From positions 686,043 through 750,042 of the forward strand of contig JAAOMT010000570.1 of the NCBI GenBank assembly GCA_016748015.1: DNA of 64,000 nt. The letters run 5' to 3'. The notes under the pieces were generated by a model, which was given only the letters and a program-made list of their open reading frames with translations, was not told the DNA's origin and did no database searches. The first letter of the stretch is position 1, and each line of letters opens with the position of its first letter. The DNA comes from Geosiphon pyriformis uo1 (taxonomy: Eukaryota; Fungi; Glomeromycota). Positions 33,751 to 62,300 of this stretch are shown here, in pieces. A program made the position numbers and the translations under genes.

Positions 33751-33850
33751 TTTTTTTTGTTGTTTTTGTCACATATATCATGTCTTTTTATACTCTTTTG
33801 GTTGTTCAATTTAATGTATTTGGTTCAATAATTATGATTGATTCCAGATC

Positions 33851-35189: not shown

Positions 35190-36020
35190 CTTTTATTATA
35201 TTTTTGAGTTGAAATGTTTTAGATTTGTTTTATTCATGACAAACTATCGGCATTTACATTTTCTTTTCCTTTTTTGTAATATACTGTATAATTAAATAGT
35301 GAAAGTTCTATTTTTCGTCTGACATGACAATTATCTCCAAATTTTTGTTTCTGGATTGAAATCAATCTTTTGTGATCAGTATACATATCAAATTTTTTAC
35401 TTAAGTATTCTTTCTATTTTATGACTGTCCAATAGATTGCTAAGTGTTTTAATGCTGGTGTTCCATAGTTTTTTTCAGTTGGATTTAAGCTGTGGCTAGC
35501 ATATGCTACTGGATGTTCTCTTCTATCTGGTCCTTTCTGAGATAGTACAGCTCCTAATACTTAATCCAATGTGTCAGTAGTAATGATGAATAGTTTACTG
35601 TAATCTGGATAAATTAATACTGGGACTTGAATAAGCTTTTTTTTTAGTGTATCAAAAGCTTTTTGTTGAGTTTCAGTTCATTTATATTTGGTGTTCTTTG
35701 TTTGAAATTAGTGTAGTGGTTGAGCTATTTTGGAAAAATTTTTAATAAAGCAGCAGTAGCATCCAACAAATCCCAAGAATGTTTTTAATTCTGTAAGATT
35801 ATTTGGTACTAGAAAGTTCTTAACAATCTCAATCTTATTTGGATCTGTTTTAATACTATTTTTGCTTATAACATGTTTCAAAAACTTGAGTTCAGTTTTT
35901 TTAAGGAAACATTTGGTTGCATTTAATTTTAATCTAGCTCTTCTTAGTTTTTCAAATACTTGTTGAAGATGATGCAAATGATTATCAAATGTTTTAGAGA
36001 ACATATTAGTGTCATTCAGA

Positions 36021-39761: not shown

Positions 39762-41201
39762 TGTTACCAGAGATTTTTGGTCTCTTTTCTTGAACATTGT
39801 AAATATCTGTTGGTTGCAAATTCACATTTTCTAAAAGTAGTTGAACCTCTAATAACTGAATTTATCTTCAAATTATTTCCTATAATTTGAACTGCTGGGC
39901 TTATAAGTAGAATGGCCAATTCCTTGCCAGTTACTTTATGTAGTTATATTGTAGTAAATGTCAACTCTTTCCCAGGAATTGCTCATCTGGAAGCTCACTA
40001 AAAATGTGTAGTTACTTTGCTGTGAAAGTCAATTCTTCTACAGGAATCTCATTTGTAGGCTACCCTAATGATTGTAATAAGAAAAGAAAAGAAAAATAAA
40101 AGAAATATAAAAAAAATAGGATTTTATCAAGAGAAACGTTTTCTATCCAGGCCTGGAGTCACTAACAGTTTACTGAAATTGGTAGCTAATCAATTTCGAA
40201 ATGTTAGTTGAGTTTTGGGAATTTTCCAAGTGCAATAATTAAAAAATTTGGTTTTTCAAATTATTTGATATTTATTTCTTTTTGTGTGTATAGGAACAGT
40301 TCTAAGTAATAAATCTAAAGTAAGATACATTTTTTTAAAGAAAAAAGCTCTTCTTTTATACAACTTGTTGTAGTACTAGTCTATGAACTTACATTTTTTC
40401 TCTTTGCTCAAATTTCGGCGAACTAAAGATATATTTTGATAAACTACAAGTTATTTTACTGAACTATTGATTAATTTGGATAAATTATTCATAATTTCGG
40501 CGAATTTCTATAAATTTCGGCGAATTTCTGTAAATTTCAGCGAATTTTAGAATGTTACAAAGTTCAGAGTATTGTGTAATTTGATCATCTTACTTTCTGT
40601 TGTACTAATTAGATTATTAATTGAATTATGATATGTGATAAATTGATTAAATAATAAGTAATAATTTAGATTGATATTAACATGTTAATTACTAATAAGA
40701 ATTATAAGGACAATTTCATGCTAATTAATAGCTAAAATTCTACTGGTAACATAATTTCCTCCTCAAGATTGAGCTCTGTCAAAGTCCAAGCACTATCTGT
40801 AATGTCAAGATAGTGGTTCAAGATGATTGAAGTGATTTGCTCTGAAAATTGTTGAAATTTCAGTTCTGTGAGCTTTCCAATGTATTGTATTTTCAATAGT
40901 TGAAGTATTGGGCTTTGTAGGACGTTTTCACAAGTATTAAACAAGTCATAGAGTCTAAGAGCTGCTTTAAGTTTGTAGCGAGTATTTGTTGATCCAGCTG
41001 CTGTCTTGAATTCATTGTGAATTTGTTTTTGTATGGCTTCTGGGGTGGTATTTGTTGCTTCAAGTTCTAGTTTTTGTTCATAAAGTGTTTTTCTAATACA
41101 GAAATATTTAAATATGAGGGTATATTCATTGTTCTGTTCATTAAATAATAGTAGAAGTTTTTGTTGTATTGTGGCATTTGGTGGAATGTCAATAGGGGCA
41201 G
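39762..41201 (-). mobile_element. Family A element A2, 3' end (ORF3 C-terminus, PPT, 3' LTR 39762-40751)
   Basis: TGTTACCAG...CTGGTAACA; PPT GAGGAGGAAA; ORF 40732..40944 homologous to A1 ORF3. Confidence 0.88.
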
Positions 41202-42151
41202 TGTTATCAGAGGTTTTTGGTCTTTTTTTAGCTCTTGTATGTTTGTTGTAATGTTGTTAATTCATGACTATGGGAAGTATTTGAACCTTCGATAACTGAA
41301 TTTTATCTTTAAATTATCTCCTATAATTTGAACTGCTGGGCTTATGAGTAGAATGGCCAATTCCATGTCAGTTACTTCTGTAGTTACATTGTAGTAAATG
41401 TCAACTTTTTCTCAGGAATTGCTTGTCTAGAAGCTCACTAAAAATGTGTAGTTACTTTGCTGTGAAAGTCAACTCTTCTACAGGAATCTTATCTGTAGGC
41501 TACTCTAATAATTGTAATAAGAAAAGAAGAGAAAAATAAAAGAAATGTAAAAGAAATAGGATTTTATCAAGAGAAATGTTTTCTATCCAGGCCTGGAATT
41601 ACTAACAGTTTACTAAAATTGGTAGCTAATCAATTTCAAAATGTTAATTGGGTTTTTGGGGATTTTTTAAGTGCAATAATTTAAAGAATTTTGGTTTTTT
41701 GAATTATTTGATATTTATTTTTTTTGTGTGTGTAGGAATAGTTCTAAGTGATAAATCTAAAGTAAGATACATTTTCTCAAAGAGAGAAGCTCTTCTTTTA
41801 TACAACTTGTCGTAACATTATTCTATGAACTTGAACTTTGCTATTTTTTACAATTTCGCTAAACTAAAGATACATTTCAGTGAACTACAAGTTATTTCTG
41901 CGAACTATTAGATATTTCAGTAAACTATCAATTATTTCTACAAATTTCTACAAATTTCAGCAAACTTTTTGAATGTTACATAGTTCGGGGTATTGCATAA
42001 TTGATCATTACAATTAGGTTACATTTATGTTATATGCAAATTGGGTTATTAATTAACTGATAATTTTGGATATTTTGCTAATGTAATAAGTAATAATTTG
42101 AAATAATAATATATGTTAATTAACAATAGGAATTATAAAAATAATTTCATG

Positions 42152-42871
42152 CTAAATAATATCTCTAATTTTGTCTAGTAACATAACCTTTTCCTCAAGA
42201 CTGAGCTCTGTTGAAGTCCAAGTACTGTCTGTAATTTCCAGATAGTAATCCAAAATTATTGAAGAAATTTGTTCTGAAAATTGTTGAAATTTTAGTTCTG
42301 TGAGCTTTCTAATGTATTGAATCTTCAAAAGTTGTAAAATTGGGTTTTGTAGGATGTTTTCACAGGTGTGGAATAGGTCATAAAGTCTAAGAGCAGCTTT
42401 TAGTTTATAACGACTGTTTGTAGGTCCAGCTGTTGTCTTGAATTCATTGTGGAGTTGTTTCTGAATAGCTTTTTTTGTGAGGTTTGTTGCTGTAAGCTCC
42501 CGTTTTCATTTGTGAAGTGTTTTTCCAATGTAGAAATATTTATATATTGGAGTATAGTTATAGTTTTCTTCATTAAGACACAGTTGAAGTTTTTGTTGAA
42601 TAGTAGCATTTGGTAGAATACTAATAGGAATAAGCATTAAGTTTTCTCTTAAAGCAAGCTTTAAAAGTTCTGGCAGGTGAATTCCAGAATAACTTCTTGT
42701 GTTCTTCTTATATAGGTGGTATTTTCGTGAATTTGGGGCTAAATTTGTAACTATTTCTGTTTGGATATAATTAATGTGGTTTCCAGTAACAGTAATAAAT
42801 AATTCAAGTATTGTTTTTAAAGTTAACATTAGTTTTTGGGATAATTGTTGAATGTTTTGAGGAATAGTCAT
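42152..42871 (-). pseudogene. A1 ORF3 (240 codons, one internal TGA), function unknown
   Basis: ATG 42871 to TAG 42154-42152 inside the LTR; no obvious signal peptide or TM helix. Confidence 0.75.
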
Positions 42872-42993
42872 TATAAGAGATTTGAAAATAAAAAAAAATT
42901 ATTTTTGGTGTATGGGTTTTTATGTTATTTTTGCTTTGTTTTTGTGAGATTGTTTATAAATTATAAGGAGATAACTATAATAATAATTTCAAG

Positions 42994-44379
42994 TTAAGTG
43001 TTCAAGTTGGGAGGTTGTTTAATGACAACTATTAGTTCTAAATTTTGGGGAATATCTTCGGAATTGATTAAAGGGGAATGTGTACCAATTTGTAAAATTA
43101 ATGATTCAGGATTGTGTCTGGAATTATAGTGTTTCAAACAATCTTTATGTGCAACTTTTGCTAAGATTTTGTCATCAAGTCTTAACTTGTATGATTTGTT
43201 GCCTAGGACTTCATGGATAAAGAATAGTCCATCCTATTTATTTTCAAATTTTCCATTCTATTGTTTTTCGGCTTTAGTTCTGTGTAAGAGAACTTTGTTT
43301 CCGATTTTAAATTCATTAGTAACTGGAGGCAATTTGTTGTCATGCCATTCTTTTTGTTGAGCTTGGGAGTGTTTAATATGGGTGGCTGCTATTTATTGTT
43401 TTCCTTCCAATGTGTTAAGCAGAGTATAGGCTCTTCGTTGTAGTGTTTCCTGAAAGTTGTCTTTATTAATTGGTTGTATTGGATATGTTTCTATTGTGAA
43501 ACTAATTGGTAATATTGCTGTCCTTCCATAGATTAAATCAAATAATGTGTGTTTTGTGGTATCTTGTTTTAGTGTTCTATATGCTAGTAACACTGATGAA
43601 ATAAAGAGATCCCATTCTTGCTCAAAATTGGTTGAGACTTTGGCTAATGATTCACACAATGTTCTGTTGAAATGTTTTACAAGTCTATTTGTTTGTGAAT
43701 GGTAGGGCAAAGATAATGGTTTTTTGACATTAAATTGTCCACAAATTTTCTGGATTAAATTGTTCACAAAATGTGTTCCTTGATCAGATAAAAGTTCTAT
43801 TGGACATCCATGTCTACAAATAATGTTTTTGTAGATGAAGTTTGCTACTGATTTTACATCTGCTCATTGAATGGCTCTGACTTCAGGCCATTTGGTGAAA
43901 TAGTCTACAGCTACTGCAATATAATAGTTTTCTTGGTTTGTGATAGGTAGTGGTCTGACTAAATCAATACCAACTTGGTCAAAAGACTGTTCAACTTTGA
44001 TTGGGTTTAAAGGTTCTGTAGGGCAAGTTCCTTCTCTTCTTTGACAACTATCACAAGACTTAATGTATTCATGAATGTCTTTTCTTATTTGAGGCCAAAA
44101 GTAATATTCTAGTGTTCTCTGAATGGTGCTGTTTTTTCCTAGGTGTGTTGATAAAGGGTCTGAGTGCATGTTATATAAAATGGTTTTTTTTTTATGTTCT
44201 TGTATTAATCTGAGTGGATTGTCTGAGTTTCTGAAGTTTTGATAATAAATCATGTTGTTGTGTAAAAAGTATTGTTTGGCTTGTTGTTGTAACTGATGTT
44301 TTTTATCTGAGAACCAATCTGTTGGAATTGTTAATGTCTCCAAATATTGTTTAAAATTGTTGTAGTTTTCGGAGTTCAT
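42994..44379 (-). pseudogene. A1 integrase, stand-alone ORF with its own ATG (462 codons)
   Basis: HHCC (HSDPLSTH...CDSC), GIDLV, AVDYFTKWPE, SDQG, RLVKHFNRTL, DGLFFI..GPF-like C-terminus. Confidence 0.88.
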
Positions 44380-44425
44380 TGTTTGTTGTTTTGTTGTTAA
44401 TTCAAATGGGTATTGGTTTTGTATT

Positions 44426-47400
44426 CTAATCTTGCCTTATTCTTGAGAGACAATCAACATTAGTATGGAGTTTTCCTGATTTGTGGTGTACAATATATTG
44501 GTAGTTGGCTAAAAATTCTGTCTATTGGGTTTGTTTTGCATTCAGCTGAGTGTTTTTGTTCTGAAGCCATTTGAGTCCAATATTATTAGTAATAATATCA
44601 AATTCTTTGGGTCTGAGGTAAAGGTTGAAGTGATATAGGACCCAGATTACTGCTGCAGTTTCTAATTCTGTTGCAGGGTAGTTTTTTTCAGCTGGTTTCA
44701 ATGTTCTGCTAGCATAAGCAATTACTTGCTCATTTCCATTGTCATCTAACTGTAATAGAATGGCACCAAAGGTGGTATAAGAGACATCTGTTACTAACCG
44801 GAATTGGTTGCTAAAATCTGGGTAGGCAAAAATTAGTTTTTCTTTGAGGATTTTAAATGCGTTTTGGTGTTTAGCAGTCCATTTGTATTCGACGTTTTTT
44901 GTGGTTGAGAGGTTTTGCAATTTCTGAGAATCCTTTGATAAACTTTCAATAGTAGAAGGCTAACCCTATGAATCCTCTTAGTTCTGTAGTGTTTTGAGGA
45001 GTTTTGAAGTTTTTGACAGTGCTGATTTTTCCAGAGTCCAGTTTGATTCCATCTTTACTAACAATATGACCAAGAAAGGCCAAGCTTGTTTTTCCAAAGT
45101 AGCATTTTTCGATGTTGAGTTTCAGTTCTGCTTTTCATAATCATTGAAAAACTTTTTACAGATGTTTTAAGTGTAATTTGAATGATGAAGAATAAACATC
45201 AGTATTGTCAAAATAAATGACTACTGACTTCCAAAAGAGTTTTTTGTACACAATATCTATTAATCTTTGAAATGTTGCTGGTGCATTGCATAATCTGAAA
45301 GGCATTACATTGAATTCATAGTTTCTTTCTTGGGTTGTAAAGGCTGTTTTGAGATGATCTTTGGGGTCTATGGCAACTTGCCAGTATTCGCTTTCTAGAT
45401 CTAGTGTTGAAAAGTATTTGGCCTTTCCAAGGGCATCTAACATATCATCAATTCAGGAAAGGGGATAGGCATCTCCAATAGTGACACTGTTGAGTTGTTG
45501 ATAATCAATACAAAATTGTATCTTTCTATTTTTCTTTTTAACTAAGACTACAGGTGAGACCCATGGACTCATTGATGATTGGATAAGCCCATTATTGAAC
45601 ATCTGTTGTACTTCTTCACGGATAAATTGGTGGCTTTCTGGAGCAACTCAGTAGGCTTGCTGTTACCTTGGTTTGACATCTCCTGTATAAATTTGGTATT
45701 GGACCAAATCAGTTCTTCCTAAGTCATTGTTGTTTTTGGCAAAGATATCGGCAAATTCTGCAATTAGCTCTTTGAGCTGGCTCTGTTGTTGTGGTTTAAG
45801 TTGTCCCATGTTAATTCAAGATAGTTTTTCCATAACAACATGGTAGTTTTCAAAGCTGGAGTTTGGGTTGATTTTTGGTAGTAAATGTCCAATAATTTCA
45901 GAGAAATTGGAGACTGTTTGGAATAATTCTTGTTGAAAGATATTACTGTGAATAACTCCAATTTCTAAGTTATTTAATAAAACTATGGGGAAATTGTTGG
46001 GATTGTAAAAAGTAACTCTGATTTTTTTTGTTCCTTCTAAAATATAAATATTTGGGATTAAGATATTATGTTCCAAGCAGATTTGTTTGTTGAACTTAAA
46101 AATTTGTTGTGTGGTTGTTGGCTTTTCACAAGTATAAATTTTGGGGTGTTCTTCAAAGGGTGAAATGGTAATTGGTTGTGGAAGTCGTAAAATTTGGTGA
46201 GATTCTTTCTGTTCGTTAAGGGCTATGTTTACTGGAACTGTAAATTGTCCAGTTAAACCAAAACCTTAGGTTCCTCTTTCACTTTTTTCCAATAGTTCTC
46301 TTTGATTGACTAATTGTAAACCCGAAATGTTGGTTAAGGGTAAATAAATGACTTGGGCAATTTTCTCAACATGTTCAATCTTAAATGGCTTGTTAGTTTT
46401 GTTTTGGAATATTACTGTTATGTTACCAGTATATCCAGCATCAATTATTCCTCCTCTGACATTGATTCCTTTGCTTGCTAGAGAGGATCAGAAGGTGATT
46501 TGAACCATTGCTCCTGGCAGGATTTCGAGAGCAATTTTGAGATTGATTTTTGTGAGAAATTTGGGTTTGAGAATGAGAGTATTCTTGTCTGGATATCTTA
46601 GGTCATATCCAGCATCAATTTTATGTGCTTTTTCAGGTTTTATTTCTTGTCTGTTGTTGTTAAAGTATTTGAGTTGTAAGGCAGGCTGGTTTTCGATGAG
46701 ATAGATGGGTGTTGCTTTACTTTCTTCTGTTGCTTCAGGTTCTCCAAATTCAATTTCGTTCTCATCATTTTTACTGAGCAGAGAAATACTAAAAGCATAG
46801 CATTCAGGACACTACTGTTCATCACAAAGCATAATGCATTCTTCACATAGTCTAATGTTTATTTGCTCTAATCATTGAATTTAAGCTTCTAGGGTTGGAT
46901 AGATGTAACTTGCAATTTGGTGGTAGACTTCTACTTCATCTTCATAATCGAATCCAGCTAATTCCATGGTGTATTCAATGTATTCTGCTTCCTTTATTTG
47001 ATGGACATCTTTTTTAGTAGCTCCATTAATTAATGCCATTGCTAAGTTGAAAATCATCTCAGCATCATGGGAGTAGTGATAAAGTTTGTTGAGAGCACTA
47101 TTGTATGCTGCATTAAAGGGTGTTCCTCTTTTTACTTTTTCTGAAATTAATAAAGCATATTGGCAGGTCTGATTGCAGACTCTTCCTCTCATTGCTACAT
47201 CAATCCAATTGCATTCTTCTGGTAGCATATCTCCACAAGTCAAACAAGAGGTGTTATTTCATTTTCCGTTTCTTTTTATTAGATGGCCCCATCATTCTCT
47301 ATGGCAAGCCTTACAGTAATAACAAGTATAATTTTCATATTTTTCTTCAGATAAAATGCAGGCTTCCATTGAAGAGAGTTTCTTGTGGCAGTCCTTGCAT

Positions 47401-50021
47401 TTGAGTAGAATATAGGGGCATTGTTTTTGTGGTTCTGGTTTTGAATAGGGAACATTCTATTTGGTTGTCACTGGTTCTTTTGTTTCAAGAGAATCATTTG
47501 TTGAAAAGTACTGTTGTTCAGTTTTATCGGCCCAATTGAAGATTGATCCAAGTGCCATAAATGTTTCCATAATGGGCTTTTCTTCTTCTGGTTCGAATTT
47601 AAAAGCTGGGGCTTTTTCGGAGTGTTTGTTGAATGTACCACAAGTGGCAGGTATCCGGGCGTGTTGTCTTTGGTAGGAGATTGTTAACTCTTGTGTCTCC
47701 CAATTCAGATTAGCATTGGCTTTTTAAAGCCAATTATTTCTGACGAGAGCTTGGTACTGGGGTGCATCCATTACAAGAACTTTGACTGAAATGGTGATTC
47801 CATCAAGAGTGAATGGAAAATTGTCAATTTCTCCTACTGGAGTCTTTTTCATACTATCGGCAGTAATGATTACTGTTTGAGCTGGTCAGTTGACATTTCT
47901 CTTTAACTGTTGCATTAACTGGTAGGTGATGATGTTTCCAGCAGATCCACTGTCTAGGATCAAGCAAATTGCCTTTCTTTTGACTTCTGCTTCAGTGTAC
48001 ATAGCAGTGATTGCTTTTTGTTTGTTGGCGGCCGCATTGTTAAGCAGGAATAGTGACTCATTTGCTTCAAACTCAAAAGAAAATATGTCTGAAAGATTGG
48101 CATTTTCAGCAATTCTGGCTGGTGGGATTGTGGTAGGAATATAGGAAGGATTTTATTGTCATGCTGCAGCTCTACCTTTCAAGAGTGCAGTATGGTAAAA
48201 ATCCTGTTCTTCAGGTATTGTAAGATAGCTAGATTGAGTATGATAATGGGTAAGTTTTGGCTGAGCTGGATTTCGGAGAACTAATTGGTTATTCAAATTG
48301 ATTCTATTGTTGTTTATTTGGTATCGGTTTTGTGGTGTAAATTGATTTTGTGGGATTAATCTTCAAGCAGGCACTTGATAATGTTGTGTAGGTGGTTGTT
48401 GGTATTGCTGTTAAATTGGCTGTGAGACAGGCTGATAATAGTTACTTTGATATTGAGGTCTTGGTAGATAGTAAGCTGGTGGTGGTAGTTAATAATAAGA
48501 TTGCTATGGTAGAGGGTAATATTGATTACTCCTATTTTGTTGGTCTTGTTGTAGCTTTCTGCAATCTTTTTTCCAGTGGCCAGAAATTCCACAGTAATAG
48601 CAACTCTAAGGCTGGTTATTAGAGAGTGATGTAAAGTTGTTTTGATTCCATCTTTGGGGTTGTTGTTGTTGTTGGTTGGTAAAATAGTTTTCGACTTTCT
48701 TTGCGAGTTGGTCAATTTTCTCTTCAGCTGCTGAGCTGGTTTCTCCAATGGCTAAGTTCACGAGTTTTGTACAATTGGCTTCTTCCATGGCCATTTCATA
48801 TTTCTTTGCATGCTAAATGGCAGAGTTTAAATCCTCTGGGACATGTGGGTGAACCTTTTTAATTAGTTTATCTTTTAAACCAGTGATAAATTGATCCAAG
48901 GTTTAAGCATCGAAATAATAATCATTAGTTTCAAGTTGGTGAATTTGTCTGAGAAGTTTGTTGAATTTCTCAATATAAGTCATAACAGATTTAGAGGGTT
49001 CTTGTTTGATATTGTGAAAACAATTTTGAAGAGTAATTAAGATGTTGTTATTGGTGAATTGTTCTAAGAAGGCAGTTTTAAAAGCTGTTTAGTCATTAAA
49101 AGGGGTGGTCAAGTTTTCAAACCATTCGCCTGCTGTTTCTTTGAAAAAGTAGGGAATTGTTCTTAACATTCTGGCAGCATTCCATCCATTTGCATCTCCA
49201 GCTTTAGTAACTTGATCGAGCCATTCTTGAGGACTGGTCTCAATGTCTTCTCTATTGAATTCAGAAATTTTTGCAATGTATGCTGTCATTTCATCTTCTT
49301 TATTTTTACTGTCTATTGATTCTTCTTAAGATATTTCAGAGTTGTTTTTTTTGTTTGTTGCTGTCTCAGAGTGTTCACTTCAATTTTCAGCTAGAAAGTC
49401 AAGAAGATTGGAACTAGTTTGAAGGGGTTCTTGTTGTTTGGTGGGACTTCTGGGTAATGTAAAATCTTCTAGTCTTGCAAATCAATTTAAGGATAAATTA
49501 GGTGTTTGTGCTTGTGCAAGTGAAGCTGGAAAAGATGTGATAGTAAGTAGAAGTTTTGAACTGGTTCCTTGTTCAGGTGTTTGTAAGTATTTGGCAGTTG
49601 TTTTTGGTAGTATTGGGGTATTTGGGGTGGTTTTTGAGTATTGCTTCAATTTTTGTTTGCCTTTGTTGCTTGTTTCTGTTTTTGATTCAAAATCAATGGA
49701 GTATTGAGACTGCACTGGATATGTTTCTTTACAATACTTGATAATATTAAAATTTAGTTCTTGAAAGTAAGTGGCAAGTGTTTCATTGTTAAGGTTTTCA
49801 GTTTCCAACTGTGAATAGTGTACTAAATTATTGTAAAGGTTGCTTCTAACTTCTGAGATATTGTAATTTCCAAAAAGATAATTGTTGATGTGGTTTTCAA
49901 TGTATTGGTATACTGATTTCTTGACAACTTCAATTCCATCTGAAATGTTGAATCTTTGCTTGCAGTGAGTGTAAATTGATTGGTAATACTCTAGAGTTGT
50001 TGTGTCTGGTGTGGTTACCAC
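44426..50021 (-). pseudogene. A1 Gag-PR-Cys-rich-dUTPase-RT-RNase H polyprotein
   Basis: Track ORFs starting 50021, 49289, 48794, 47243, 46076 and 45443 share one frame. CYYCGISGHWKKDC at ~48600, LILDSGSAG at ~47960, RT YFDN, RNase H TDVS...VDCLSR, then TAG at 44428-44426. Confidence 0.9.
46250..46690 (-). pseudogene. dUTPase domain within A1 pol
   Basis: Motifs DAGYDL, (R)SSLASKG, GGIIDAGYTG, KIAQ, ERGT*GFGLTG. Confidence 0.9.
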
Positions 50022-50049
50022 TTTGAAGTTGTTTTTGCTGTGTTGTTTT

Positions 50050-50064
50050 CGTGGGAGAGCACCA
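50050..50064 (-). promoter_or_regulatory. Primer-binding site of A1
   Basis: TGGTGCTCTCCCACG, 2 nt downstream of the LTR ...GGTAACA; complementary to a tRNA 3' end (isotype not determined). Confidence 0.8.
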
Positions 50065-50266
50065 AATGTTACCAGAGGTTTTTGGTCTCTTCTTAGCTCT
50101 TGTATGTTGGTTGTAATGCTGTTAATTCATGACTATGAGAAGTGTTTGAACCTCTGATAACTGAATTTATCTTCAAATTATTTCCTATAATTTGAACTGC
50201 TGGGCTTATAAGTGGAATGGCCAATTCTGTGCCAGTTATTTTGTATAGTTACGTTGTAGTAAACGT

Positions 50267-51194
50267 TGTTACTCATAAAATATAGAAAGTATATTAGCAT
50301 ATAAATTAGCCAATCATAGGTAGACATAGTAAATGTGGAATTCCAAGATTCCTCTCAAAAGAATTGCAGGATTCCAGAAATTGCAGAATTTTCACACAAG
50401 GAATTACAGGATTCCAGAATTCCAGGATTCCTCTCAAAAGAATTGCAGAATTCCAGGAATTCCAGAATTCCTGACATGAAAAATTGAGGAATTGAGGAAT
50501 CTTAAATACATATATATAGCAGTAATATCAGAAGTTAGAAAATTAGTCAATGAGACTTAGAGTCAATTGATTCGTGGAGTCAATTAGACTTATAGAATTA
50601 ATTAGACTCGCAAAATCATAATTATTAAATACTCTTCCTTCAAAAAATAGAATACTATAACTTGAAGTGAAATCGCTCTCATATTAATGAAATTATCCAT
50701 TATCTTCAAATCCATGTTATTATCTACTACTTAACCTGCTGGCACAATAGCTCTTGATCACGGCTATTGACAAGACACTTATTTCTTATTTTATTTTCTT
50801 ATTTCTTTATTTTCTTTTATTTTCTTTATTTTATTTTCTTTTCTTTTGTTGTTCACTAAATTGATTAAAAGAATTAAGTGCTGAGTTATTGACGTCATGG
50901 ATAGCCTGGTAAAAGACCCAGAAATAAGGGTAGAATTATATATTATCGGATAGCTTACCAGAAGGGCACAACTGCCAGAATAAATCTGGCCACCAAGCTA
51001 AGAAAGAAATTGGGAAAACAACTTGAGAATACAACCACTATCAATCTTATTGAATCTCTGTTCATTATACAAAGGACTCAACCAAAACCTTCAGATAAAA
51101 ATACCTTCAGATATTACTAACAACATTATATCAATTGAGCACCAAGTTACGGGTTTGTTATTTGATTTGAGACCCCAAATAATCATCTGTAACA
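50267..51194 (+). repeat. Solo LTR, family B, inserted in the A1 5' LTR
   Basis: TGTTACTC...TGTAACA; TSD ACGT (50263-50266)/ATGT (51195-51198, CpG decay); the host LTR resumes seamlessly. Confidence 0.92.
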
Positions 51195-54100
51195 ATGTCA
51201 ACTCTTTTCCAGGAATTGCTCATCTGGAAGCTCACTAAAAATGTGTAGTTACTTTGCTGTGAAAGTTAACTCTTCTACAGGAATCTCATCTGTAGGCTAC
51301 CCTAATAATTGTAATAAGAAAAATAAAAGAAAAATAAAAGAAATGTAAAAGAAATAGAATTTTATCAAGGGAAACGTTTTTCTATCCAGGCCTGAAGTCA
51401 CTAACAGTTTTATTGAAATTAGTAGCTAATTAATTTCAAAACTGTTTTAGTAGGAATTGGTTAATTTCACAAGGGAAAATGATTAAGGATTTGATTTTTC
51501 GAATTATTTGATATTTATTTTGTTTTTTGTGTGTGTAAAGGATAATTCTAATTGTTAAATCTAAAGTAAGATACATTTTTTTGAAGAGAGAAGCTCTTCT
51601 TTTATACAACTTGTTGTAACACTATTCTATAAACTTGAACTTTGTTCTTTTCTACAATTTCATTGAACTAAGACTACATTTCAGCAAACTACAAGTTATT
51701 TCTGTAAACTATTAGATATTTCGGTGAACTATCAATTATTTTGGCAAATTTCTACAAATTTTGGCAAACTTTTTGAATGTTACATAATTCGGGATATTGC
51801 ATGATTGATCATTGCAATTAGGTTACATTTGTGTTATATACAAATTGGGTTATTAATTAAATGATAATTTCGGATATTTTGCTAATGTAATAAGTAATAA
51901 TTTGAAATGCTAATTAATAATAAGAATTATAAGGGTAATTTCATGCTAAACAATATCTCTAATTTTGTCTGGTAACATCAGCAACGGATTCTGCATCCGC
52001 TTTTTGAATTGTTTTTGCCTCTGGCCATTTAGTGAGATAGTCCATGGCTACTGCTATGTACCTGTTTCCTCTACTGGTGATTGTTAATGGTCTGACTAAA
52101 TCAATTTCAATATGGTTGAATGGTTGTTTCACTTTAATTGGTCTTAATGGTTTACTGGGTTTTGTACCTCCTCTTCATTGACAAGCATCACAATTTTGAA
52201 CATATTGGATGATGTCTGGATATATTGATGACCAATAGTATTTTTTTCTGGTTCTTTCCATGGTTGCTTCTTTGTGAAAGTGTCCTGCTGTTGGATTTGA
52301 GTGCATGTTGAATAATATTGTCTTTTTTTTTGGTTCTGTAATTACTCTAGTTGGTTGCTTTAGATCTTTTTTATTTTTCCGATAAAGTATATTTTGGTGA
52401 GTGATAAAATATTTTGATTGTTGTTTGATACTCTTTTGTTCCATTTGAGATAAATTCTCCTTGAACTGTTGAGTGTTTATATAATATTGCAGTTGTTGAT
52501 ATTTTTGTATGTTCATCTTTTTGTTATATTTTTCGTTGGTATTGTTCTGGTTTTGTTATATTTTTGGGTTGAAATGTTCTTAAATTTGTTTTATTCATGA
52601 CAAACTATCAGCATTTCCATTGTCTTTTCTCTTTTTATAATGTATAGTATAATTATATGGTGTGAGTGCTATTTTCTATCTTGACTGTCTTCCATCTCTA
52701 AATTCTTGTTTTTGAAGTGATGTTAGTCCTTTGTAATTTGTGTATACTTCAAACTTCTGGCTCAAGTATTCTTTCCATTTCATGACTGCCCAGTATATTG
52801 CTAAGTGTTTTTGTTCCAGTATTCCATAGTTTTTTTCGGCTGGTGTTAAACCTCTACTGACATATGCTACTAGATGTTCTCTGCTGTCTAGTCTTTTTTG
52901 AGATAGTACTACTCCCAATGCTTGACCAGATGCATCGGTGGTGATAATGAATGGTTTGCTGTGATCTGGATAGATCAGTACTGGAGCTTGAATAAGCTTT
53001 CTTTTCAGAATATCAAAAGCTTCTTGCTGACTTTCTGTCCATTCATATTTTGTATTCTTGGTTTGTAGTTAGTTGAGTGGCTGTGCTATCTTGGAAAAGT
53101 TCTTGATAAAACGTCAATAGTAGCTGGCGAATCCCAAGAATGATTTCAATTCTGTCATATTGGTCAGCACTAGAAAGTTCTTTACTATCTCTATTTTCTC
53201 TGGATCCATTTTGATGCCGTCTTTGCTGACTATGTATCCTAAGAATTTTAGTTCTGTCTTGCTGAAAAAACACTTTGTTGCATTTAACTTTAGTCCTGCT
53301 CTTCTTAGTCTTTCAAACACTTGTTGAAGATGATGAAGATGATCATCAAATGTTTTTGAGAATACATTGGTGTTGTCCAAGTATACAACTACTGATTTCC
53401 ACAATAAGCCAGTATAAACAATTTCTATTAACCATTGGAAAGTGGCTGGTGTATTGGTTAAGCCAAATGGCATTACTTCAAATTCAAAATTCCCTTCTTT
53501 AGTGGTAAATGCTGTCTTTTCTTTGTCAGTTGAATCCATGACTACTTGCCAGTAACCACTGTTCAGGTTTAATGTTGAAAACCATTTGTTTTCACTGAAA
53601 GCGTCAAATAATTTTTGGATTCGTGGAATGGGGTAACTATCTCCACGAGTTACTCTATTGAGTTTTTTATAATCTACACAAAAGCAGATTTTCCTATTTT
53701 TTTTCTGGACAAGTACCACTGGTGATAACCATGGGCTCATAGACGGCTGGATTAGCCCATTGTCAAGCATTTAATTGATCTCTTGATGAATGATTTCATG
53801 ACTGGCTGGTGGTATCCTGTATGCTTGCTGTTTGATTGGCATTGTATCTCTAGTCTTGATTTAATGTTGGATAATGTCAGTTCTGCCAAATTTGTTTTCG
53901 CTGGCAAAGATGTCATTGAAATTGTTGAGTAACCTCTTGAGCTGCATATGTTATAGTGGGTCCAGATTTCTCATGTTTATTTGTTCTAATTGTTTTGGTT
54001 GGAGCAAATAACATTTATTTCATCCATAGATTGTTTGTGATATGATGTCGACATATTCACAAAGTTGTGGAAAGTCTGGAATGGGGTTTGGGGTTTGGTC

Positions 54101-54399
54101 TTCTATTTCTGTGGTTAAATATCTGATAGTGGTTCCTCCTGGTATGTTGATGATATTGCCAGTGTTGTTGTAGATGGGAATTTTTATGCAGCTATAGCTT
54201 TTGGCTAGTATGTGGAGATTGATCAGTCCAATCTCTCCTGATTCATAAAGGTTTGCTTCAGCCTCAAAAATCTGTTCTTGCTCCTTTTCCTTCCTTTCTA
54301 TTGCTAGCATGTACTGGCTATATGGTAGAATAGAAATAGCTTGACTGGTTGAAATAATTTCTTCTTGGCCAACAATTTCTTCTTCTGCCATATTAACTG

Positions 54400-54850
54400 A
54401 TACATCTATTCTACCCATTGACCCAAATCCTTGTATCCCTCTTGCTGTTATTCTTAACTTTTCCCTATTTCCCACTGGTACTAACTGAGCTATCTTGACC
54501 AAAGATAAAAATATTGCCTATGCTATCTTTTTGTTTGACTCTATTATATAGGTCTTTTCTGAGTTATTTTGTAGCATGATAATGATATTTCCTACATATC
54601 CTGCATCAATTATTCCTCCTCTTATATTAATTCCTCTTTTTGCTAAACTACTCCAGAATGCTAGTTGAACCATTGTTGTTGCTGGAATTTCCAGCGCTAT
54701 TTTCAGATTGATGCAAGTGCATGAATGTGGTTCCAGTTTGATAGCATCTTTTCCTAGATATCTCAAGTCAAATTCAGCATTAGTATTATGTGCGCATTCT
54801 GACATAATACCTTTATTATTATCACTGAACCATTTCAGCTCTTGTTTTTT
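54400..54850 (-). pseudogene. dUTPase domain within B1 pol
   Basis: AEFDLRY, WSSLAKRG (decayed RSS), GGIIDAGYVG, KIA*(Q), RGIQGFGSMG. Confidence 0.9.
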
Positions 54851-57800
54851 GGTGAGATTAGAAAGTGCGATATATTGTTCATAATTTAAGTCGGAGTTTG
54901 AATCTGAGTTGATATCATTGTCATTGTTATTGCCATTTTGAACAGAGCTGGAACTGTTATTCTTATCATCATTATTGTCAGAGTTTGAATTGGGATTGAA
55001 CGGTAATTCCGACTCCAATGTGCATTTGCTGATTGGTTCTTCCTCTTCAGGAATTATGTAAATCATGCGTGGTGGTAGATTGTAAATGAGGTCACAATTG
55101 TCACAATATTTAAAGTCATTGGGAATTAAACAATGGCAACACAGTCTTGTATTCAACTGTACTAGCCATTGTTTTTGCTCCTCTCTAATGGGTGCCAAGT
55201 TTTGGTAGTGTTCATGGAACTCTTCTGGTTCTAAGAAATTTATGACTGGCTCTGCATCCCAGTCAAGTTCAATGGGTTCTGGTGGGTTGTTTTTAATTGT
55301 TCTGATTTCTTTTGGTAACACGCCTTCAATTTTGGTGATTACCATTCTCCATAATTCATCATTGTCATGTGGACAACTGTCCAATTACTGTACAGCTCTT
55401 TTCCAGGCAGCTTCTATTAGTGTCTCTTTCTTGACTTAGTCACTGATAAGGATTGTGTATTGGCAGGAAATATTACACATTCCTCCTCTTCCAGGAATGT
55501 TGTTCCATATTTCTTCATCAAGGAGAGTTTCTCTACAGGCTAAACATGGTGTATTATCCCATTTTCCCACTTGTTTTGGTCTTCCAAAGTGTTCAATGAG
55601 GCATGCGTGGCAATAGAACTTGGTTGCTGTCTGATATTCTTTGTTGTTGCCACAACATGCACTCATTGACAACAATTTCTTATCACAATCAACGCACACT
55701 AGTTTGGGTCAGCAATAGGTGAATTGTTGTGATATTGTGAGTTTGTTGGCAGTGGCTTTTTTTCTTTTACTTTTCCTTTCTCTTTGTTGCTTTCTTTCTC
55801 TTCCCAGCTTGGTGTTGGTTCTCTTTCATTGTTGTTGGTCCAAATTAGGTTGTTTGTTTCCCAGGTAAGTTTTTTTCTTTGCTTTCTCTTGGGATTGTCA
55901 TCCCACAATAGTATTGGTGTTAGCTTGTAGTGGTCTTTGTTGTTGGTCCAAGCATTAATAGTGGTTCTACTGGTAGGTTTTTTTCCTTGTCTCTCTTTTT
56001 CATTGTTATCGTCATCCCAGGCAAGTATTGGTGGCAGTTCATTGTGATCGACATCGGCCCACAATACTTGGTACGCCTCTTAAGTAGGCTTTAGTTGTTC
56101 CTCTTTGAGATCGATAAGCGGTGCTGATGTCATGACATTGTTAGGTTTAAAATGGCCACACATTGCCGGTACTTGTGTGTGCTGGCCATTTTGGCTGAAC
56201 TGGAGCTCCTGTATGGTCCAGTCAAGGATGGCATTGTTTTTAGACAACCAATCATTGCTCACTAGTGCTTGGTATTGGGTTGCCTCCATTACCAAGACTT
56301 TGATGGGAGTAATGATGCTATTAACTTCAATTGGGAAGTTGTCAATTTCACCAATAGGCATTTTCGTGGCACCATTGGCAGTAATGATTCTAGCACTGGC
56401 AGTTCAATCAACTTGGTGACCTAATTGATCCATGAGTTGTCATGTGATGATGGTGCCTGCTGAACCACTGTTAAGAATTAACTTGATGAAGTGGCCATCA
56501 ACTTTCACATCAGTGTACATGACAGTGATGGGTTTTTCTTCCAGAGCTGCTCTACTGAATAAGGGGACTGATGTAACTTCCTCGAATTCAAATGGAAAGA
56601 TAACTGCTAACAATTTGTTATTGGTAACAATTACTGGTGGAATGTTGTTGGTAAGTATTGTTGGTTGTTGATCGAGTTCTGGGTTGTTGGAGGTGATGTC
56701 TTCTGGGATAACCAGGAGACTTAAATAGTTCTGGGAATTCAGGTTTTGGGTGGAACCAATACCCAAATCTCACTGATGAGATCCTGATTGTTGGCCTGAT
56801 GAACTGGAGATTGGTTGATAAATAACCATTGTTGATCTCCAGTTTTGGGTGATTCTGGATCTTGGGTTTCTTGACGTTATCATAACTGAGTTTTGATATG
56901 ACGTTTGAACTTGTTGGGGTTGATAAATTACTTAAAACTGTGACTGATAAATGACTTGTGACTGTGGTTGATAAATTGTTGGTGGCTGTGGCTGATAAAT
57001 TGGCAGTTGATATATTGTTGGCTAATAAATTGGTGGCTGCATCATAGGCAGGTAAGCGTTTTGATATTGTTCTTGATTGGATTGGTGATTTGGAGTCTGA
57101 AACTAGTGATTAGGGTTTCAATAATGGTTTCCCGATCATGGGTTGCTATAAGTATGGCAGTTGGTTCTAATATGCCCTTGTTTACTATAGTTGTAGCAGA
57201 CATGCGTTTTTGGCTGTCATGACTGATTAGTAGACAATCCTAGACATGATTGATTCTGGAAATGATTTGTGTTTCTTATATCATTACATTATTGGGGTGG
57301 CTGATAAATTGCATGATTGTTAGCTAAGTAGCTCTCTAATTTCTGATTGATGTTGTCACTAAATTGTTTTAGCTTGGAATCCAGGTCAAATGATCCATTC
57401 ATTACTAAATTCACAGCTTGGGCATGGTTAGCTTCTAACTTGGTGGCTTCAAAATCTCTGACATGAGTTACAGCAGTTGGGAGATCAACTGGATGCATTG
57501 GACATACTCGCTGGAGGATGCTACTGCACAATTCTCAGATAAATTGGTTCAAGATCTGTGGCACTGTAAAGTAGTCAGCTTGGATTGCCTGAATTTAGTG
57601 CAGATTTCTATGAAAGCATCCCAAGTAAGTAGTAACTGCTTCTGTGTCTCTTTGTTTGATGGTGGTGAAAGTACTTGCCAAGTGGTTGATGCTGTTGTTA
57701 TTACTAAAATACCTCAAAAATTCTAATTTAAAGGCATTAAAGTTTTGAGGTTTCTGGGCTAGACTGTAATACCAAGAGTCTGCCATGTCTTTAAGAAAAT

Positions 57801-58957
57801 AGGGAATGACTTGCATGGTTCTGGCATCATCCCAGTTATTGGTGGTGATTGCTTTGGCGACGTCATTGATCTAGACTTGAGCGTCGTTCTCTTTGCCAGT
57901 GAATTTCTTGAGTTTGGTTATTGATACATATGCCATTGGATCTAAGTTGGGTTGCAGTGGTTGTTGAAGTGGTACTAGTGGTTGTTGAATCTGCTGGTGT
58001 AGTTGTTGTGATGGCTGGCCAATCAGTTCAACTGGTGGTGGATTAATGATGATAACAGGAGATAAGTCCAGTTGATTAATTAGATTGGAGTTCTGATTGT
58101 TCTGATTTGGCAGTGGTTGAATATTCAGAGTTTTGATTTCCAGGTTTTCCAAATTTAAATTTTGTTGGGTTTGAAAATTCAGTGTTTCAACTTCCGGGTT
58201 TTCAGTGATTAGGTTCTGGTAAGTAAATTCTTGATCTTCTGATTCTTCTTCTTTTTCTTCTTCTTCAGATAGTTTCCATGGGGTAGTGGTTCTAAAGTCC
58301 AGTTAAGGTGGTGGTGATCGAATTCCTAAGGGCATTGGTGATTGCAATTTAAATTCTTCAAAGTATTCACCATATGGTTCTAATAATTCTGTTTTCTTTT
58401 AATTACTTTGAAATGGAAATTGTTCAAATGCTGATGTCACGTTTGATGTGGATGCGTCTGTTAATAAAATGTTGATGGCACTTCTGGGTGTATAGTGATA
58501 AGATGGATTGGTTGGTGATTCAACCCTTGTCTTCTTCCAAATAAATAGTTGTATTTTTTTGGGAGTTACTGCTGGTGTTTGTAGTTTTTTTTTGTCTTTA
58601 CTAGCATATGTAATCGGATATCTTTGTTGGGTGTGATGTTCAATTTCTTTGTTGATCTTAGTGATAATAGATGCAAAATTATGATTTGTTGGTAGGTTGG
58701 TGTTTTGAATTAATTCTCTGTAGAAAGTTTCCCTTGCTGATTTCATATTCACTGGTGTTCTTAACAAAGAAGAAATTTTTTTATTAATGTAGAAATTAAA
58801 GACTGATTTGGCGGATATATGATTGGGATTTAATCTCAAGTGTTGACAATAGTATTGAAATAAGAATTTCGCAAATCCTAAATGGTTTGCTCCAATATTT
58901 TCTGATTTTACCACTTTTGAATGGTGTTTGTTGGTATTGGTTTTCTGTAAGATTATA

Positions 58958-58974
58958 CCTCACAAGAAGCACCA
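58958..58974 (-). promoter_or_regulatory. Primer-binding site of B1, possibly elongator tRNA-Met-like
   Basis: Plus strand CCTCACAAGAAGCACCA resembles the 3' end of eukaryotic elongator tRNA-Met (...CCTCAC...GCACCA); isotype is an inference. Confidence 0.7.
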
Positions 58975-59789
58975 AATGTTACAGGTGTTTCTTTGGGGTG
59001 TTGAATGAATACTAAATCCATAACTTGGTGCTCAAAAGCTATTCGCATTGTGGATAATATTTTTAAGTGGTTGGTATCTGAAGGTTTTCCAATGAGTCTT
59101 TTGTATAATGGACAGAAATTCAATAGTTGTTTTATCCATAGCTTCCCAGACTTGCAAGTCTGTCAATTCTTTTCTTAGCTTGGTGGCCGGCAATTCTCTG
59201 GTAAGTAATTTGTATCTTCTGTATGTGTCTTACCCACTTGCAGAGGTCTTTTACCAGGCAATCTTTGACATCAGTAACCAGCACTTTGAATCAATTGGTT
59301 AGTGCATAATAACAAAATCAAAGAAACATAAAGAAAATAAAGAAATATAAGGAAATAAGCCAAGGCGATTTGCAAGTTAGTATCCCATCAATAGCTGTGA
59401 TTAAAAGCTATTGTTCCAGTGTAGTTAAGTATCAATTACTATTAACATAAAGGGTTGATAGTGAAGAATGGATTTGATATAGTGAATAATTATTTATTTG
59501 AGAATTGTGAGAACTAAGCTAAGAATTCTTGGTGTCCATTCTGTCTTTTCTGCCTTTAATGCTACTGTTATATATACATATCTGAGATTCCTCAATTTCT
59601 CAATTCTTTGTGACAGAAATCCTGGAATTCCTAGAATTCTGCAATTCCTGATGAGAGAATCCTGAAATTTCTGGAATCCTGCAATTCCTCTAAGAGGAAT
59701 CTTAGAATTTCACATTTACTACGTCTACATCTGATTGGCTAATATCTACTGACTAATAATACTATATTTCCTATATTCTATGAGTAACA

Positions 59790-62300
59790 TCATGATTGAT
59801 TGGCTGATAATAATAATGAACATGATTGATTTTGGAAACAATTGAAGTTTCTTTGGTTGTTATGACATTAAAGAGGTTAATAAATTGCCTAATTATTAGC
59901 TAAGTATTCCTTAATTTTTTGATTAATGGCTTTATTAAATTGCTTCAATTTGGTATCCAATTCAAATAATCTATTTATTACTATATTTATAATTTGGGCA
60001 TAGTTGGCTTTGAGTTTGGCCAATTCAAAATCCTGCATGTATATGACTGCATTTTAGAGAGTATTTGGGTGTATTGAGCATACTTATTGTAATAAGCTGC
60101 TGTATAATCCATGAATAAATTGATTCAAAATTTGTGGTATTATAAAATAATCAGCTCCAATTGCCTAAATTTGGCACAAATTTTGATAAAAAAGTCTCAA
60201 ATATGTGATAACTGTTTTAGTATCATTTTGTTTAATAATAGTAAAGCTAATTAATAATCAATTAATACTGTTGTAATTGCTGAAATATTGTAGAAATACA
60301 GTTTTAAATGCATTAAAAGTTTGTGGTTTATTGATTAAGCTGATATCATAAGTTAGTAGTATTTTGTAAGGAGTAGAAAATAGCTTGAAGAGCTTTAACA
60401 CTATTCCAGTTATTGGTTGTAATTGCTTTGACTATGTTATTCAATTATGTTTGAGTGTTATTCTTCTTGTTAATAAATTTTTTTAGTTTAGTAATAGATG
60501 TATATACTATTGGTACAAATTATTGTTGTTGCAATTATTGTTAAAGTTGTTGTTGTTGTAATTGGTAAATTGATTACAATAACTAAAGATAGGTTTTGCT
60601 AAAAAATAAGAACAAAGTTTGAATTGTTTAGGTTTTACAGAATTTGAACAATCAGAATTTATACTTTTAGGTTATTTAGAATTGGGTTTTAATTATTTAT
60701 TCTCTAATTGTTTTTTTTTTTTTTTCTGATTCAGTATCTTTCTAATGATAATAGATCTGAAATTTGGTTGAGATGGCAGTAATTAAAGTTCTAATAATAT
60801 TGTTAGTCATAATTTAAATTTTTAAAAAAAATTGCTGTAAATTCCTAATAATTTGGCTTTTTCTTGATTATTTTGGAATAGTGCTCTGAATAATAGTGTT
60901 TTTGCCATTGACATTAATATGAATTCAGATGGTATATATATAGTACTTCTTGGTATATAATAATATAACAGGTAAATAGATGAAACAACTTTTGGTTTCT
61001 TTCAAGTAAGTGATTGTATTTTTTTTGGTGTTCTTACTAAAGTTTGTAATTTCTTTTTGTTTATAAAGATAATAGAAAATTTTTGTTGAATGTACTTTTC
61101 AATTTTTTTGTTTATTTTTATGTTAAGTGGTGCAAACAGATAGTTTGATAGAAGTGTGATGTGTTATAATAGTTTACTGTTAAAATTTCTAAAAACAGCT
61201 TCTGAATCTTTTTGGTTTTCCAAATAAGATTTAATTTTTTTGTTAACATAGAAGTTAAAAGCTGATTCTGTTGGTTAATAGTTATTTGTTAATCTGAGAT
61301 AAGTTTGGTAATGTTGAAATAAGAATTTTGTAAATTCTAAATAATTTTCTCTTTTAATTTTTTGGTCTGACACTTTTTTAGATAGTTGATATTAGTGCTA
61401 GTTTTTTGTTAAATTATATCTCACAGAGAGCACCAAAAATTATAAGTAATTATTTAGAGTGTTAAACCAAATAACAAATCTGTAACTTGGTGCTTAATAA
61501 CTAAAAATGTTAATAATTTCTAAAAGTTTTGGAGTCTGAAGATTTTGGTTGAGTCTTTTATATAATAAACAGAGATTTAATTAATGGTTTCTTTTGTGAA
61601 TTTTTTTTTAACATGATAGTTAGTTGATTCTGGCAGTTGTGTTTTTCTGGTAAGCTATCCTTAAGTTTTTTCTATTCTTGTTCTTGGGTTTTTTATCAAG
61701 CTATCTTTAATGTCAAATACTTAATACTTAATTTCTTTAATTAATTAGTAAACAACAAAAAAACAAAACAAAAAAAAATAAAAGAAAATAAAAGAAAATA
61801 AGAAATTAGTATTCTGTTAATAGCCATAATTAAAAGCTATTGATTTAATATAGTTAAGTATTAGATTTTATCAACATAAAATGTTAATAGAGTGAAATAA
61901 ATTAATATTTTTTAATTAAATAATAATAACATGAATTTAATAATAATAGATAATTTTATTAATATAGAAATAATTCTATTTTAAGTCATAAAAAACTATC
62001 TTTTAAAAAAAAGTATTGTTGTTCTAAACTAAATTGAATTTTATCTATTTTATTAAATTCTTTTGAAATTACTTTTTTTGCTTTTAATACTTTTGCTATA
62101 TATACATAATTTATGTTATATAAGATTTTTTAAAATTCTTTAATTTTTTTAAAAGGAATTCTATAATTTCATAATTCCTTAAAAAAAATTCTGGAATCTT
62201 GCAATTTTTCAAGAAAAATCTTGAAATTTTTTTTTTACTACACTTATTTTTAATTGGCTATTTTATCTATTATTATAATTTCTAATTTCTATAAGTAATA
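59790..62300 (-). mobile_element. Older B-related element B3: 5' LTR 61438-62300, PBS, decayed gag
   Basis: PBS (plus strand CTCACAGAGAGCACCA, ~61420-61435); gag relic colinear with 57300-58914. Confidence 0.78.

Follow-up and report, generated by a model that had tools for sequence, protein, structure and literature searches.

Integrase normally enters the particle of a long terminal repeat (LTR) retrotransposon as part of Gag-Pol. Elements of the Ty3/gypsy type (family Metaviridae) are described as having one to three genes, arranged as gag-pol, as gag and pol, or as gag, pol and env, with the integrase (IN) inside pol (ICTV profile, PMC7879559). Here, we analyze elements in 64,000 nucleotides of DNA of the fungus Geosiphon pyriformis uo1 (contig JAAOMT010000570.1 of assembly GCA_016748015.1, positions 686,043 to 750,042 of the forward strand), which we call the window. 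The domains follow the order protease (PR), reverse transcriptase (RT), RNase H (RH) and IN, and RT, RH and IN are of the Ty3/gypsy type. Like the non-chromoviral branch of the Metaviridae, the elements have TG...CA LTR ends, a primer-binding site (PBS), a polypurine tract (PPT) and a CCHC Gag; unlike the Metaviridae, they encode IN in an open reading frame (ORF) of its own rather than within pol, and their third ORF (ORF3) is not an envelope gene. The elements are thus Ty3/gypsy-type by descent and mechanism, and depart from the genome description of the family. They apparently represent a real and undescribed variant with a separate integrase and a clade-wide accessory ORF3.

Parts of this layout have counterparts in described systems. 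A dUTPase between PR and RT was published for PosPlaTy3-5 of Postia (PMC2864245), and LTR lineages of bdelloid rotifers combine a dUTPase with non-env ORF3s (PMC5408684). In the available parts of these sources, PosPlaTy3-5 and the Phanerochaete, Tuber and bdelloid rotifer elements share the dUTPase, and their described IN lies within Pol. In the rotifer elements, ORF3 encodes an env-like, a GDSL or a DEDDy protein, whereas ORF3 of the window has no Pfam family above noise. Overlaps of stop and start codons mark reinitiation of translation in caliciviruses and influenza B, and the accessible text of PMC10275272 and PMC2699510 also reports reinitiation for SART1 and hypovirus CHV1, respectively. 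The lineage described here resembles these systems, and cauliflower mosaic virus with its transactivator, in having UAAUG or AUGA after a long ORF and RNA structure nearby. It differs from them in that no split-pol LTR element is among them, and in that the junctions here, known from sequence only, are mostly spacers of 24-100 nt. Foamy and complex retroviruses use spliced or internally promoted messenger RNAs (mRNAs), keep IN in Pol and have env. A pol function outside the main polyprotein and small non-envelope ORFs beside or overlapping the 3' LTR are points of likeness to them; unlike in these viruses, no splice signal was found here by counting YAG triplets. The open-access literature, a scope that leaves GyDB, Repbase, subscription journals and bioRxiv supplements outside, yielded no account of LTR elements whose integrase has an ORF to itself; the family table of PMC2864245, a source available in part, may hold one. 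The available portions of PMC3248453, PMC2774666, PMC5408684, PMC13468544, PMC10224137 and bioRxiv 10.1101/2021.03.30.436303 describe no separate integrase.

The window is AT-rich repeat DNA with a nest of decayed Ty3/gypsy-type LTR elements, and all LTR elements described in it are on the minus strand. LTR elements make up 41.2% of the G. pyriformis genome, according to the accessible part of PMC11952901. Only one copy, A1, has every part of the layout. Its 5' LTR (50067-51977) is followed after 2 nt by the PBS TGGTGCTCTC (50055-50064) and by a long frame (44426-50066) that encodes Gag, PR, a cysteine-rich domain, dUTPase, RT and RH, has one frame break near 44912 and ends with a TAG at 44426-8. 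An A/C-rich spacer of 46 nt (44380-44425), free of AUG and without predicted structure, separates it from the stand-alone integrase ORF (42994-44379; 461 codons, four premature stops). A second AUG-free spacer of 122 nt (42872-42993) leads to ORF3 (42152-42871; 239 codons, one premature stop), which crosses the PPT (42184-42196), preceded by the clade-wide motif GAGCTCA, and has its final 32 nt within the 3' LTR (41202-42183; 982 nt). All these features are on the minus strand.

The second family is represented by B1, which has a 5' LTR (58977-59789, 813 nt), the PBS TGGTGCT (58968-58974), a long frame of the same domain content (52580-58959) with one break near 55700 and a terminal TAA at 52580-2, and the 5' half of an integrase ORF (51978-52516). 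The A1 5' LTR interrupts B1 within IN, at 51978, which is why B1 lacks ORF3. The remnant B2 (32300-36025, left end approximate) retains a partial RT, RH with its stop at 35219-21, IN, a decayed ORF3 (33774-33067) and a 3' LTR ending at 33107. Since B2 supplies RH, IN and ORF3, the B layout is a composite of two copies. All parts of B1 and B2 lie on the minus strand.

The stop codon after RNase H and the stand-alone integrase, claimed by an earlier sequence-only reading of this DNA, were confirmed, and the same stop codon recurs in A1, B1 and B2. In each copy, the stop is located five codons past the last RNase H motif. The distance from the stop to the IN start is 46 nt in A1, 63 nt in B1 and 29 nt in B2, which corresponds to three different frames; the homologous IN start of B2 reads ATA. 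The A1 integrase comprises an H2C2 zinc domain, an rve core and an SH3-like tail. In 643 contigs of sample X1, variants present at 5% or more occur at 13 positions of the stretch 44320-44520; the spacer holds four of these positions, and both the stop and the AUG are free of them. As X1 is possibly the same sample from which the window comes, and as rare variants are lost in contigs, this constancy describes a trait of the family and is not independent support.

The same arrangement is found outside Geosiphon, among others in soil metagenomes. Of 120 IN homologues that were listed, 111 have Met as their first residue and 94 begin within four residues of the Met of the window; the search was restricted to proteins of 243-776 residues, among which fused forms could not show. 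A complementary search among proteins of 944-3007 residues listed 120 RT homologues, four of which end 1-3 residues past the RNase H motif; the others include one with a 221-residue tail without IN and are mostly distant fused elements. A scan of DNA that does not depend on gene calls yielded 80 metagenome loci (numbered with the prefix L). When L081 is added, 40 of the 81 loci have no RNase H in reach; 28 of the 41 informative loci are split and 13 are fused, with L068 and L081 counted as fused. The intact relatives L003 and L016 show the same split layout as the window. The separate IN of L016, L020 and L035 stands behind a long RNase H tail, as Pol extends about 300-600 residues past RNase H (L016:3497-4441, L020:2420-3274, L035:4945-6705); no Pfam domain above noise was found in these three extensions. 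At L037:509-1237, an ORF with a match to the restriction-endonuclease-like Mrr_cat_2 (E 5.5e-9) directly precedes a clade-type integrase.

The copies in the window are dead, with 31 in-frame stops in the 1718 codons of the A1 long frame, 17 and 14 in the two parts of that of B1, and observed-to-expected CpG ratios of 0.15-0.24. This degree of decay is what might favor reading the split and ORF3 as decay products of this genome. However, such an origin is contradicted by the intact L003 and L016, the stop and the AUG are free of variants at 5% or more in the genome's contigs, and ORF3 bears the mark of purifying selection, so that we regard it as extremely improbable. As judged from these sequences, decay explains neither the stop after RNase H nor the separate integrase, and the three-gene layout is very probably a trait of a lineage.

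Phylogenies of RT-RH and of IN, which the sequence-only reading had suggested, group the split elements, with two fused members inside. The RT-RH tree of 40 rows contains a clade of 22 with support of 99/99 under LG+G4, composed of 18 split elements, one model from Rhizophagus clarus, one long-tailed protein without IN and the fused P0190 and L055. The IN tree of 43 rows contains a clade of 24 with support of 100/99, made up of 22 split elements and the same two fused ones; within it, L002 is the sister of A1. A clade of split elements only was not rejected (approximately unbiased test, p-AU 0.48 and 0.31), which is no proof of it. The rows are Ty3/gypsy-like only, with no retrovirus or Bel/Pao outgroup; near-duplicates were left out, and 18 of 58 rows were thinned, including the long branches L067, L081, P0155 and P0168. 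In a quick tree, L067 and L081 fall within the clade, where they draw a long-branch warning. By RT-RH, the elements group with fused, non-chromoviral ones, some of them from animals, and not with plant or algal chromoviruses, and three chromoviral rows fall outside the clade. No chromodomain was found in residues 1-436 of the A1 integrase, and none is listed for the 120 IN homologues. Named members of the clade come from Geosiphon, Rhizophagus irregularis and R. clarus, and a match labelled Bacillus, from a metagenome-assembled genome, is probably contamination. No named reference sequence of the fungal Ylt1, SN_1006 or Tmt1 clades occurs among the listed RT and IN matches or in the scans of metagenomes and viral contigs; the viral-contig scan with IN retrieved only distant integrases. 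What stands of the undescribed lineage postulated earlier is the separate integrase and the conserved third ORF, which extend far beyond this genome.

The four traits that had been joined in one package do not travel together. The long frame from Gag to RNase H, with a cysteine-rich domain and a dUTPase between PR and RT, was recovered as claimed in A1 and B1 by Pfam domains. In A1, a single frame (50066-44913) covers Gag, CCHC, PR, dUTPase and RT, and RH lies beyond the break; in B1, Gag-PR is followed past the break by the cysteine-rich domain, dUTPase, RT and RH. Both breaks look like decay, as P0162 has an unbroken PR-Cys-RT and intact relatives have an unbroken RT-RH. Gag was identified by matches to Retrotrans_gag (E 8e-9) and zf-CCHC (E 4e-4), and Ty3_capsid was under its cut-off. 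The single frame is not universal, as gag and pol are in separate frames in L003 and L022. The A1 cysteine-rich domain (46800-47399, minus strand) has several CxxC pairs and no Pfam match, and is 36-39% identical to those of B1 and P0162. The A1 dUTPase domain (46248-46637, minus strand) matches Pfam with E 1e-20, and each of the five dUTPase motifs is visible in A-type copies and P0162. Beyond Geosiphon, the dUTPase and the cysteine-rich domain occur together in one of 91 records (P0162; 80 loci and 11 proteins), many of which are too short for PR-RT; the stretch from PR to RT is complete in at least 16 records of the clade. On these records, the two domains are an addition of a sub-lineage and not a trait of the clade. 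The layout is therefore composed of two nested traits: the split IN and ORF3 at the level of the clade, and the dUTPase and cysteine-rich domain in the sub-lineage, with the PBS differing as well. We take the two domains to have been gained later, in the Geosiphon branch; they would keep uracil in the cDNA low. A domain of about 90 residues follows the dUTPase (45870-46230 in A1, 54090-54370 in B1) and is common to P0162 and the fused P0190; it may be a degenerate second dUTPase fold, a lead only, given a pairwise P of 0.029 and a probability of 1.7%.

A non-membrane ORF of about 230-240 residues ending inside the LTR had been reported, and A1 ORF3, with its 239 codons and its end 32 nt inside the 3' LTR, agrees with this. 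The ORF3 parts of the A2 remnant (40732-41201) and of B2 are homologous to it (profile E 9e-60 and 3e-23). No transmembrane segment was found: the best 19-residue hydropathy is 1.04 in the intact A-type P0026 and at most 1.53 in 25 ORF3 proteins. This, with the soluble and helical models of ORF3, sets it apart from an errantivirus-like env. ORF3 is present behind IN in 19 of the 31 in-clade loci that have at least 600 nt downstream, versus none of 10 fused loci. When 1.84 billion representatives were searched with a profile, 35 ORF3 matches emerged, of which seven are remote (E 7e-15 to 8e-4). Among 3301 ORFs, an iterative search that started from L008 gathered 30 sequences, with both the A and the B type of Geosiphon among them, and one seeded by Geosiphon ORF3 alone halted at seven. 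An ORF after IN at L061:1961-2497 has an ORF3-like motif by eye and is below the inclusion threshold; the ORF3 family may therefore be wider than counted. The ratio of nonsynonymous to synonymous changes (dN/dS) is 0.18 between A1 and A2 and 0.24 between A1 and L002, which shows, at the level of these alignments, purifying selection on ORF3; in RT, synonymous sites are saturated. A1 ORF3 is 87% identical to proteins named Geosiphon pyriformis, with at least 120 listed matches, all so named. Domestication of ORF3 by the host was considered and is not needed, as 69 of 120 listed matches being full-length fits many decaying copies.

The ORF3 fold is predicted to be all-helical. The 148-residue form of L010 was modelled with a pLDDT of 95 and a pTM of 0.87 and has eight helices; the Geosiphon form (pLDDT 67) has a similar series of helices after an N-terminal extension. 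Conserved positions include a Y/F-x-L-G motif and an Arg or Lys in all 23 rows covering the site. ORF3 gave nothing above noise against Pfam, single members with a best E of 0.0012 against PHROGs, and a best E of 0.45 (Mdm2) against PDB sequences; its models gave no Foldseek hit with E of 0.001 or lower against the PDB and viral models, and a best Z of 4.4 for both models in a wide structure search. The absence of a match is no proof of a new fold. Three hints below significance, an Atlas score of 0.85 to DUF1016_N, a Foldseek E of 0.8 to a DUF3102 protein and a Z of 3.4 to Spo0J, point toward helix-turn-helix proteins. We tentatively propose that ORF3 is not an envelope but an accessory protein that stays inside the cell and binds nucleic acids, which is the weakest step of our interpretation. 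The ORF3 tail over the PPT is poorly predicted. Because it overlies a DNA motif that is conserved even where ORF3 stops earlier, the end of ORF3 inside the LTR is incidental. Further ORFs after IN are a coiled-coil-like one ahead of ORF3 (L003:7404-8258) and two unrelated ones at L030:2942-5367. Fused outgroups carry a different third ORF, GDSL/SGNH-like by eye (L064:7329-8099, L072:7295-7783, L076:4835-5533); GDSL third ORFs are reported for rotifer elements in the accessible text of PMC5408684.

The lineage lines up three genes: Gag-Pol, which stops past RNase H; the integrase, which has an AUG to itself; and the small ORF3. We propose that a single RNA serves for all three, with ribosomes that resume translation at IN and at ORF3 once they have reached the stop codon before each. 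For transcription, an intact element would use its 5' LTR, and for priming a host transfer RNA (tRNA); it would insert with a 4-bp duplication, like any Ty3/gypsy element. The protease would have no IN to cleave from Pol, and IN would need to bind RNA, Gag or RT in order to reach the particle. Taken as a whole, the lineage layout with stop-restart is, by a small measure, probable as the best explanation; stop-restart as the route to IN and ORF3, considered on its own and from junction sequences, is evenly poised. We rank it before subgenomic mRNAs, and these before internal initiation. At 34 RH-IN junctions, seven are overlaps, 20 are spacers of 1-100 nt and seven are longer. The overlaps include UAAUG twice, AUGA once, -8 twice and -11 in two near-identical loci. 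Between IN and ORF3, 17 of 20 gaps are 150 nt or shorter, including one AUGA overlap, in a count that favors short gaps since the ORF3 AUG was picked as the first near the IN stop. A hairpin and a conserved GUGAAAGC box lie a few bases before the IN AUG in 13 loci of one subclade (L016:4476-4503, L006, L008, L010, L011, L021, L023, L026, L040, L049, L050, L056 and L063). In the hairpin, 98.5% of alignment cells are paired and seven of ten pairs have changes on both sides, compared with 0 of 500 shuffles and at most three pairs in slid controls; the structure was drawn from the same related sequences, and the controls flatter this result. No Rfam match was found for the site in the four loci scanned.

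The complex-retrovirus-like strategy suggested by the sequence-only reading is possible, and the junction sequences fit stop-restart better. It would make IN and ORF3 from separate subgenomic mRNAs, spliced or internally promoted. Some spacers are long and rich in AUG (365 and 395 nt), two IN-ORF3 gaps exceed 1.3 kb, the AUG-poor A/C-rich spacers would also suit a 5' leader, and a purine is at -3 of the IN start in 35 of 43 loci. Gene models of R. clarus, moreover, place an intron at the RH-IN junction. However, no surplus of YAG acceptor triplets precedes the IN AUG (27 of 45, against 28.9 in shuffles), start-stop overlaps recur in separate branches, and the R. clarus models omit the last RNase H motif and disagree on the 3' junction, a pattern suggesting that a gene predictor bridged the stop. 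Subgenomic mRNAs are therefore rather unlikely. Internal initiation, in which an RNA element of the spacer brings ribosomes to the IN AUG without upstream translation, would draw on the covarying hairpin and its box; yet the element is confined to one subclade, the A1 spacer has no predicted fold, and the seven overlapping junctions have no spacer at all, which makes this route improbable. The least credible of the routes is that IN is still made as a Pol fusion through read-through or frameshifting. The fused in-clade P0190 and L055 and the ten of 34 loci with IN in frame with the upstream ORF are consistent with a fusion, whereas the spacers are spread over the three frames (10, 12 and 12 of the 34 loci), several in-frame cases have a second spacer stop (B1, L022, L030) and the Met at the IN start is conserved; this is very improbable.

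Several observations weigh against the three-gene layout expressed by stop-restart. The spacer of A1 lacks the hairpin. According to the available part of PMC10275272, ribosomes that have translated a very long ORF usually depend on a helper RNA element to reinitiate. In 21 de-duplicated spacers, AUG occurs four times versus 13.7 in dinucleotide shuffles; this scarcity gets little weight because the control GTA is equally scarce (4 versus 12.3), so the signal is not specific. Seven loci have spacers longer than 100 nt, some of them rich in AUG (seven in L004, eight in L056), which would be hard to cross by scanning after the stop and argue for more than one route. In four R. clarus models, a predicted intron links RH with IN. 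No ORF3 match was found in 12 of the 31 in-clade loci. The support of the RT-RH clade drops to 89/86 under a mixture model. P0190 and L055 are intact, fall within the clade in both trees and keep a continuous Pol with IN. An outcome that the sequence-only reading had named as refuting it is, in part, observed here. Going beyond stop-restart alone, we speculate that the RNA is tricistronic, with successive structure-aided stop-restart, and that ORF3 is a trans-acting reinitiation promoter of new fold, like the caulimovirus transactivator, or a silencing shield, in an undescribed and widespread fungal clade; this combination is unlikely.

The set of termini given in the sequence-only reading was recovered in part. 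The TGTTA(C/T)...TAACA ends and the TGGTGCT PBS are present, and two LTRs, a PBS and a PPT flank the internal region. The ends TGTTA...TAACA recur in four of six relative loci checked, and the PBS differs between families, so that TGGTGCT is not clade-wide. Duplications of 4 bp at the target site surround only two solo LTRs, one of A type (23926-24906, minus strand; a perfect ACAG/ACAG) and one of B type inserted within the A1 5' LTR (50267-51194, plus strand; ACGT/ATGT); none was found around A1 and B1. The structured LTR RNA is unsupported, with z of +0.90 and +1.28 in two LTR stretches of 300 nt; four B LTRs have small hairpins in common, with little covariation. Motifs before the PPT are known from other Ty3/gypsy elements. 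Here, such a motif is kept across the clade, with a consensus near CAGGAGCTCAA..TTGAGGAGG, inside or outside ORF3 (window 42184-42215, minus strand; L002:3090-3120; L003:9180-9220; L024:5470-5505). The U5 of B-type LTRs (59015-59035, 61480-61500) has a stretch complementary to the element's own PBS. Complementarity as strong occurs in 23 of 2000 shuffles for B1, one of 2000 for B3 and 215 of 2000 for A1, and could form a U5-leader stem or hint at self-priming. The window has no tRNA gene.

A1 is itself a recombinant. It is not one clean insertion, since its flanks are of different families, A-type ORF3 on the left and B-type IN on the right, and its LTRs are 88.5% alike, a value near the 87.3% between its 3' LTR and an unrelated solo LTR. 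The left flank is the A2 remnant (39762-41201, minus strand), which consists of the 3' part of ORF3 and a 3' LTR (39762-40751). The gag fragment of the remnant B3 (59790-62300, ends approximate, minus strand) adjoins B1 and is accompanied by a decayed 5' LTR with a PBS. Long repeats with two long decayed reading frames occupy 15500-22100 and 38350-39760 on the plus strand, and 25500-31400 and 36017-37300 on the minus strand. They look like non-LTR elements, and three segments scanned gave no Pfam match; one of the repeats interrupts B2, and another is interrupted by the A2 LTR. A host gene for the TFIIF beta subunit is located at 12900-14100 on the minus strand (Pfam E 7e-12 and 2e-7), and near it is a decayed ORF3 fragment (14969-15321, plus strand).

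At least 120 Geosiphon homologues of ORF3 are filed as hypothetical proteins, and Rhizophagus gene models bridge the stop by an intron, so that the lineage is mis-annotated in current records. ORF3, a conserved accessory protein, could be modelled with confidence, and no structure matched the model. A large and successful lineage with a separate integrase needs another route of expression and packaging. It would supply a natural series of eukaryotic stop-restart junctions, from overlaps and short spacers to a covarying hairpin, together with fused members for comparison.

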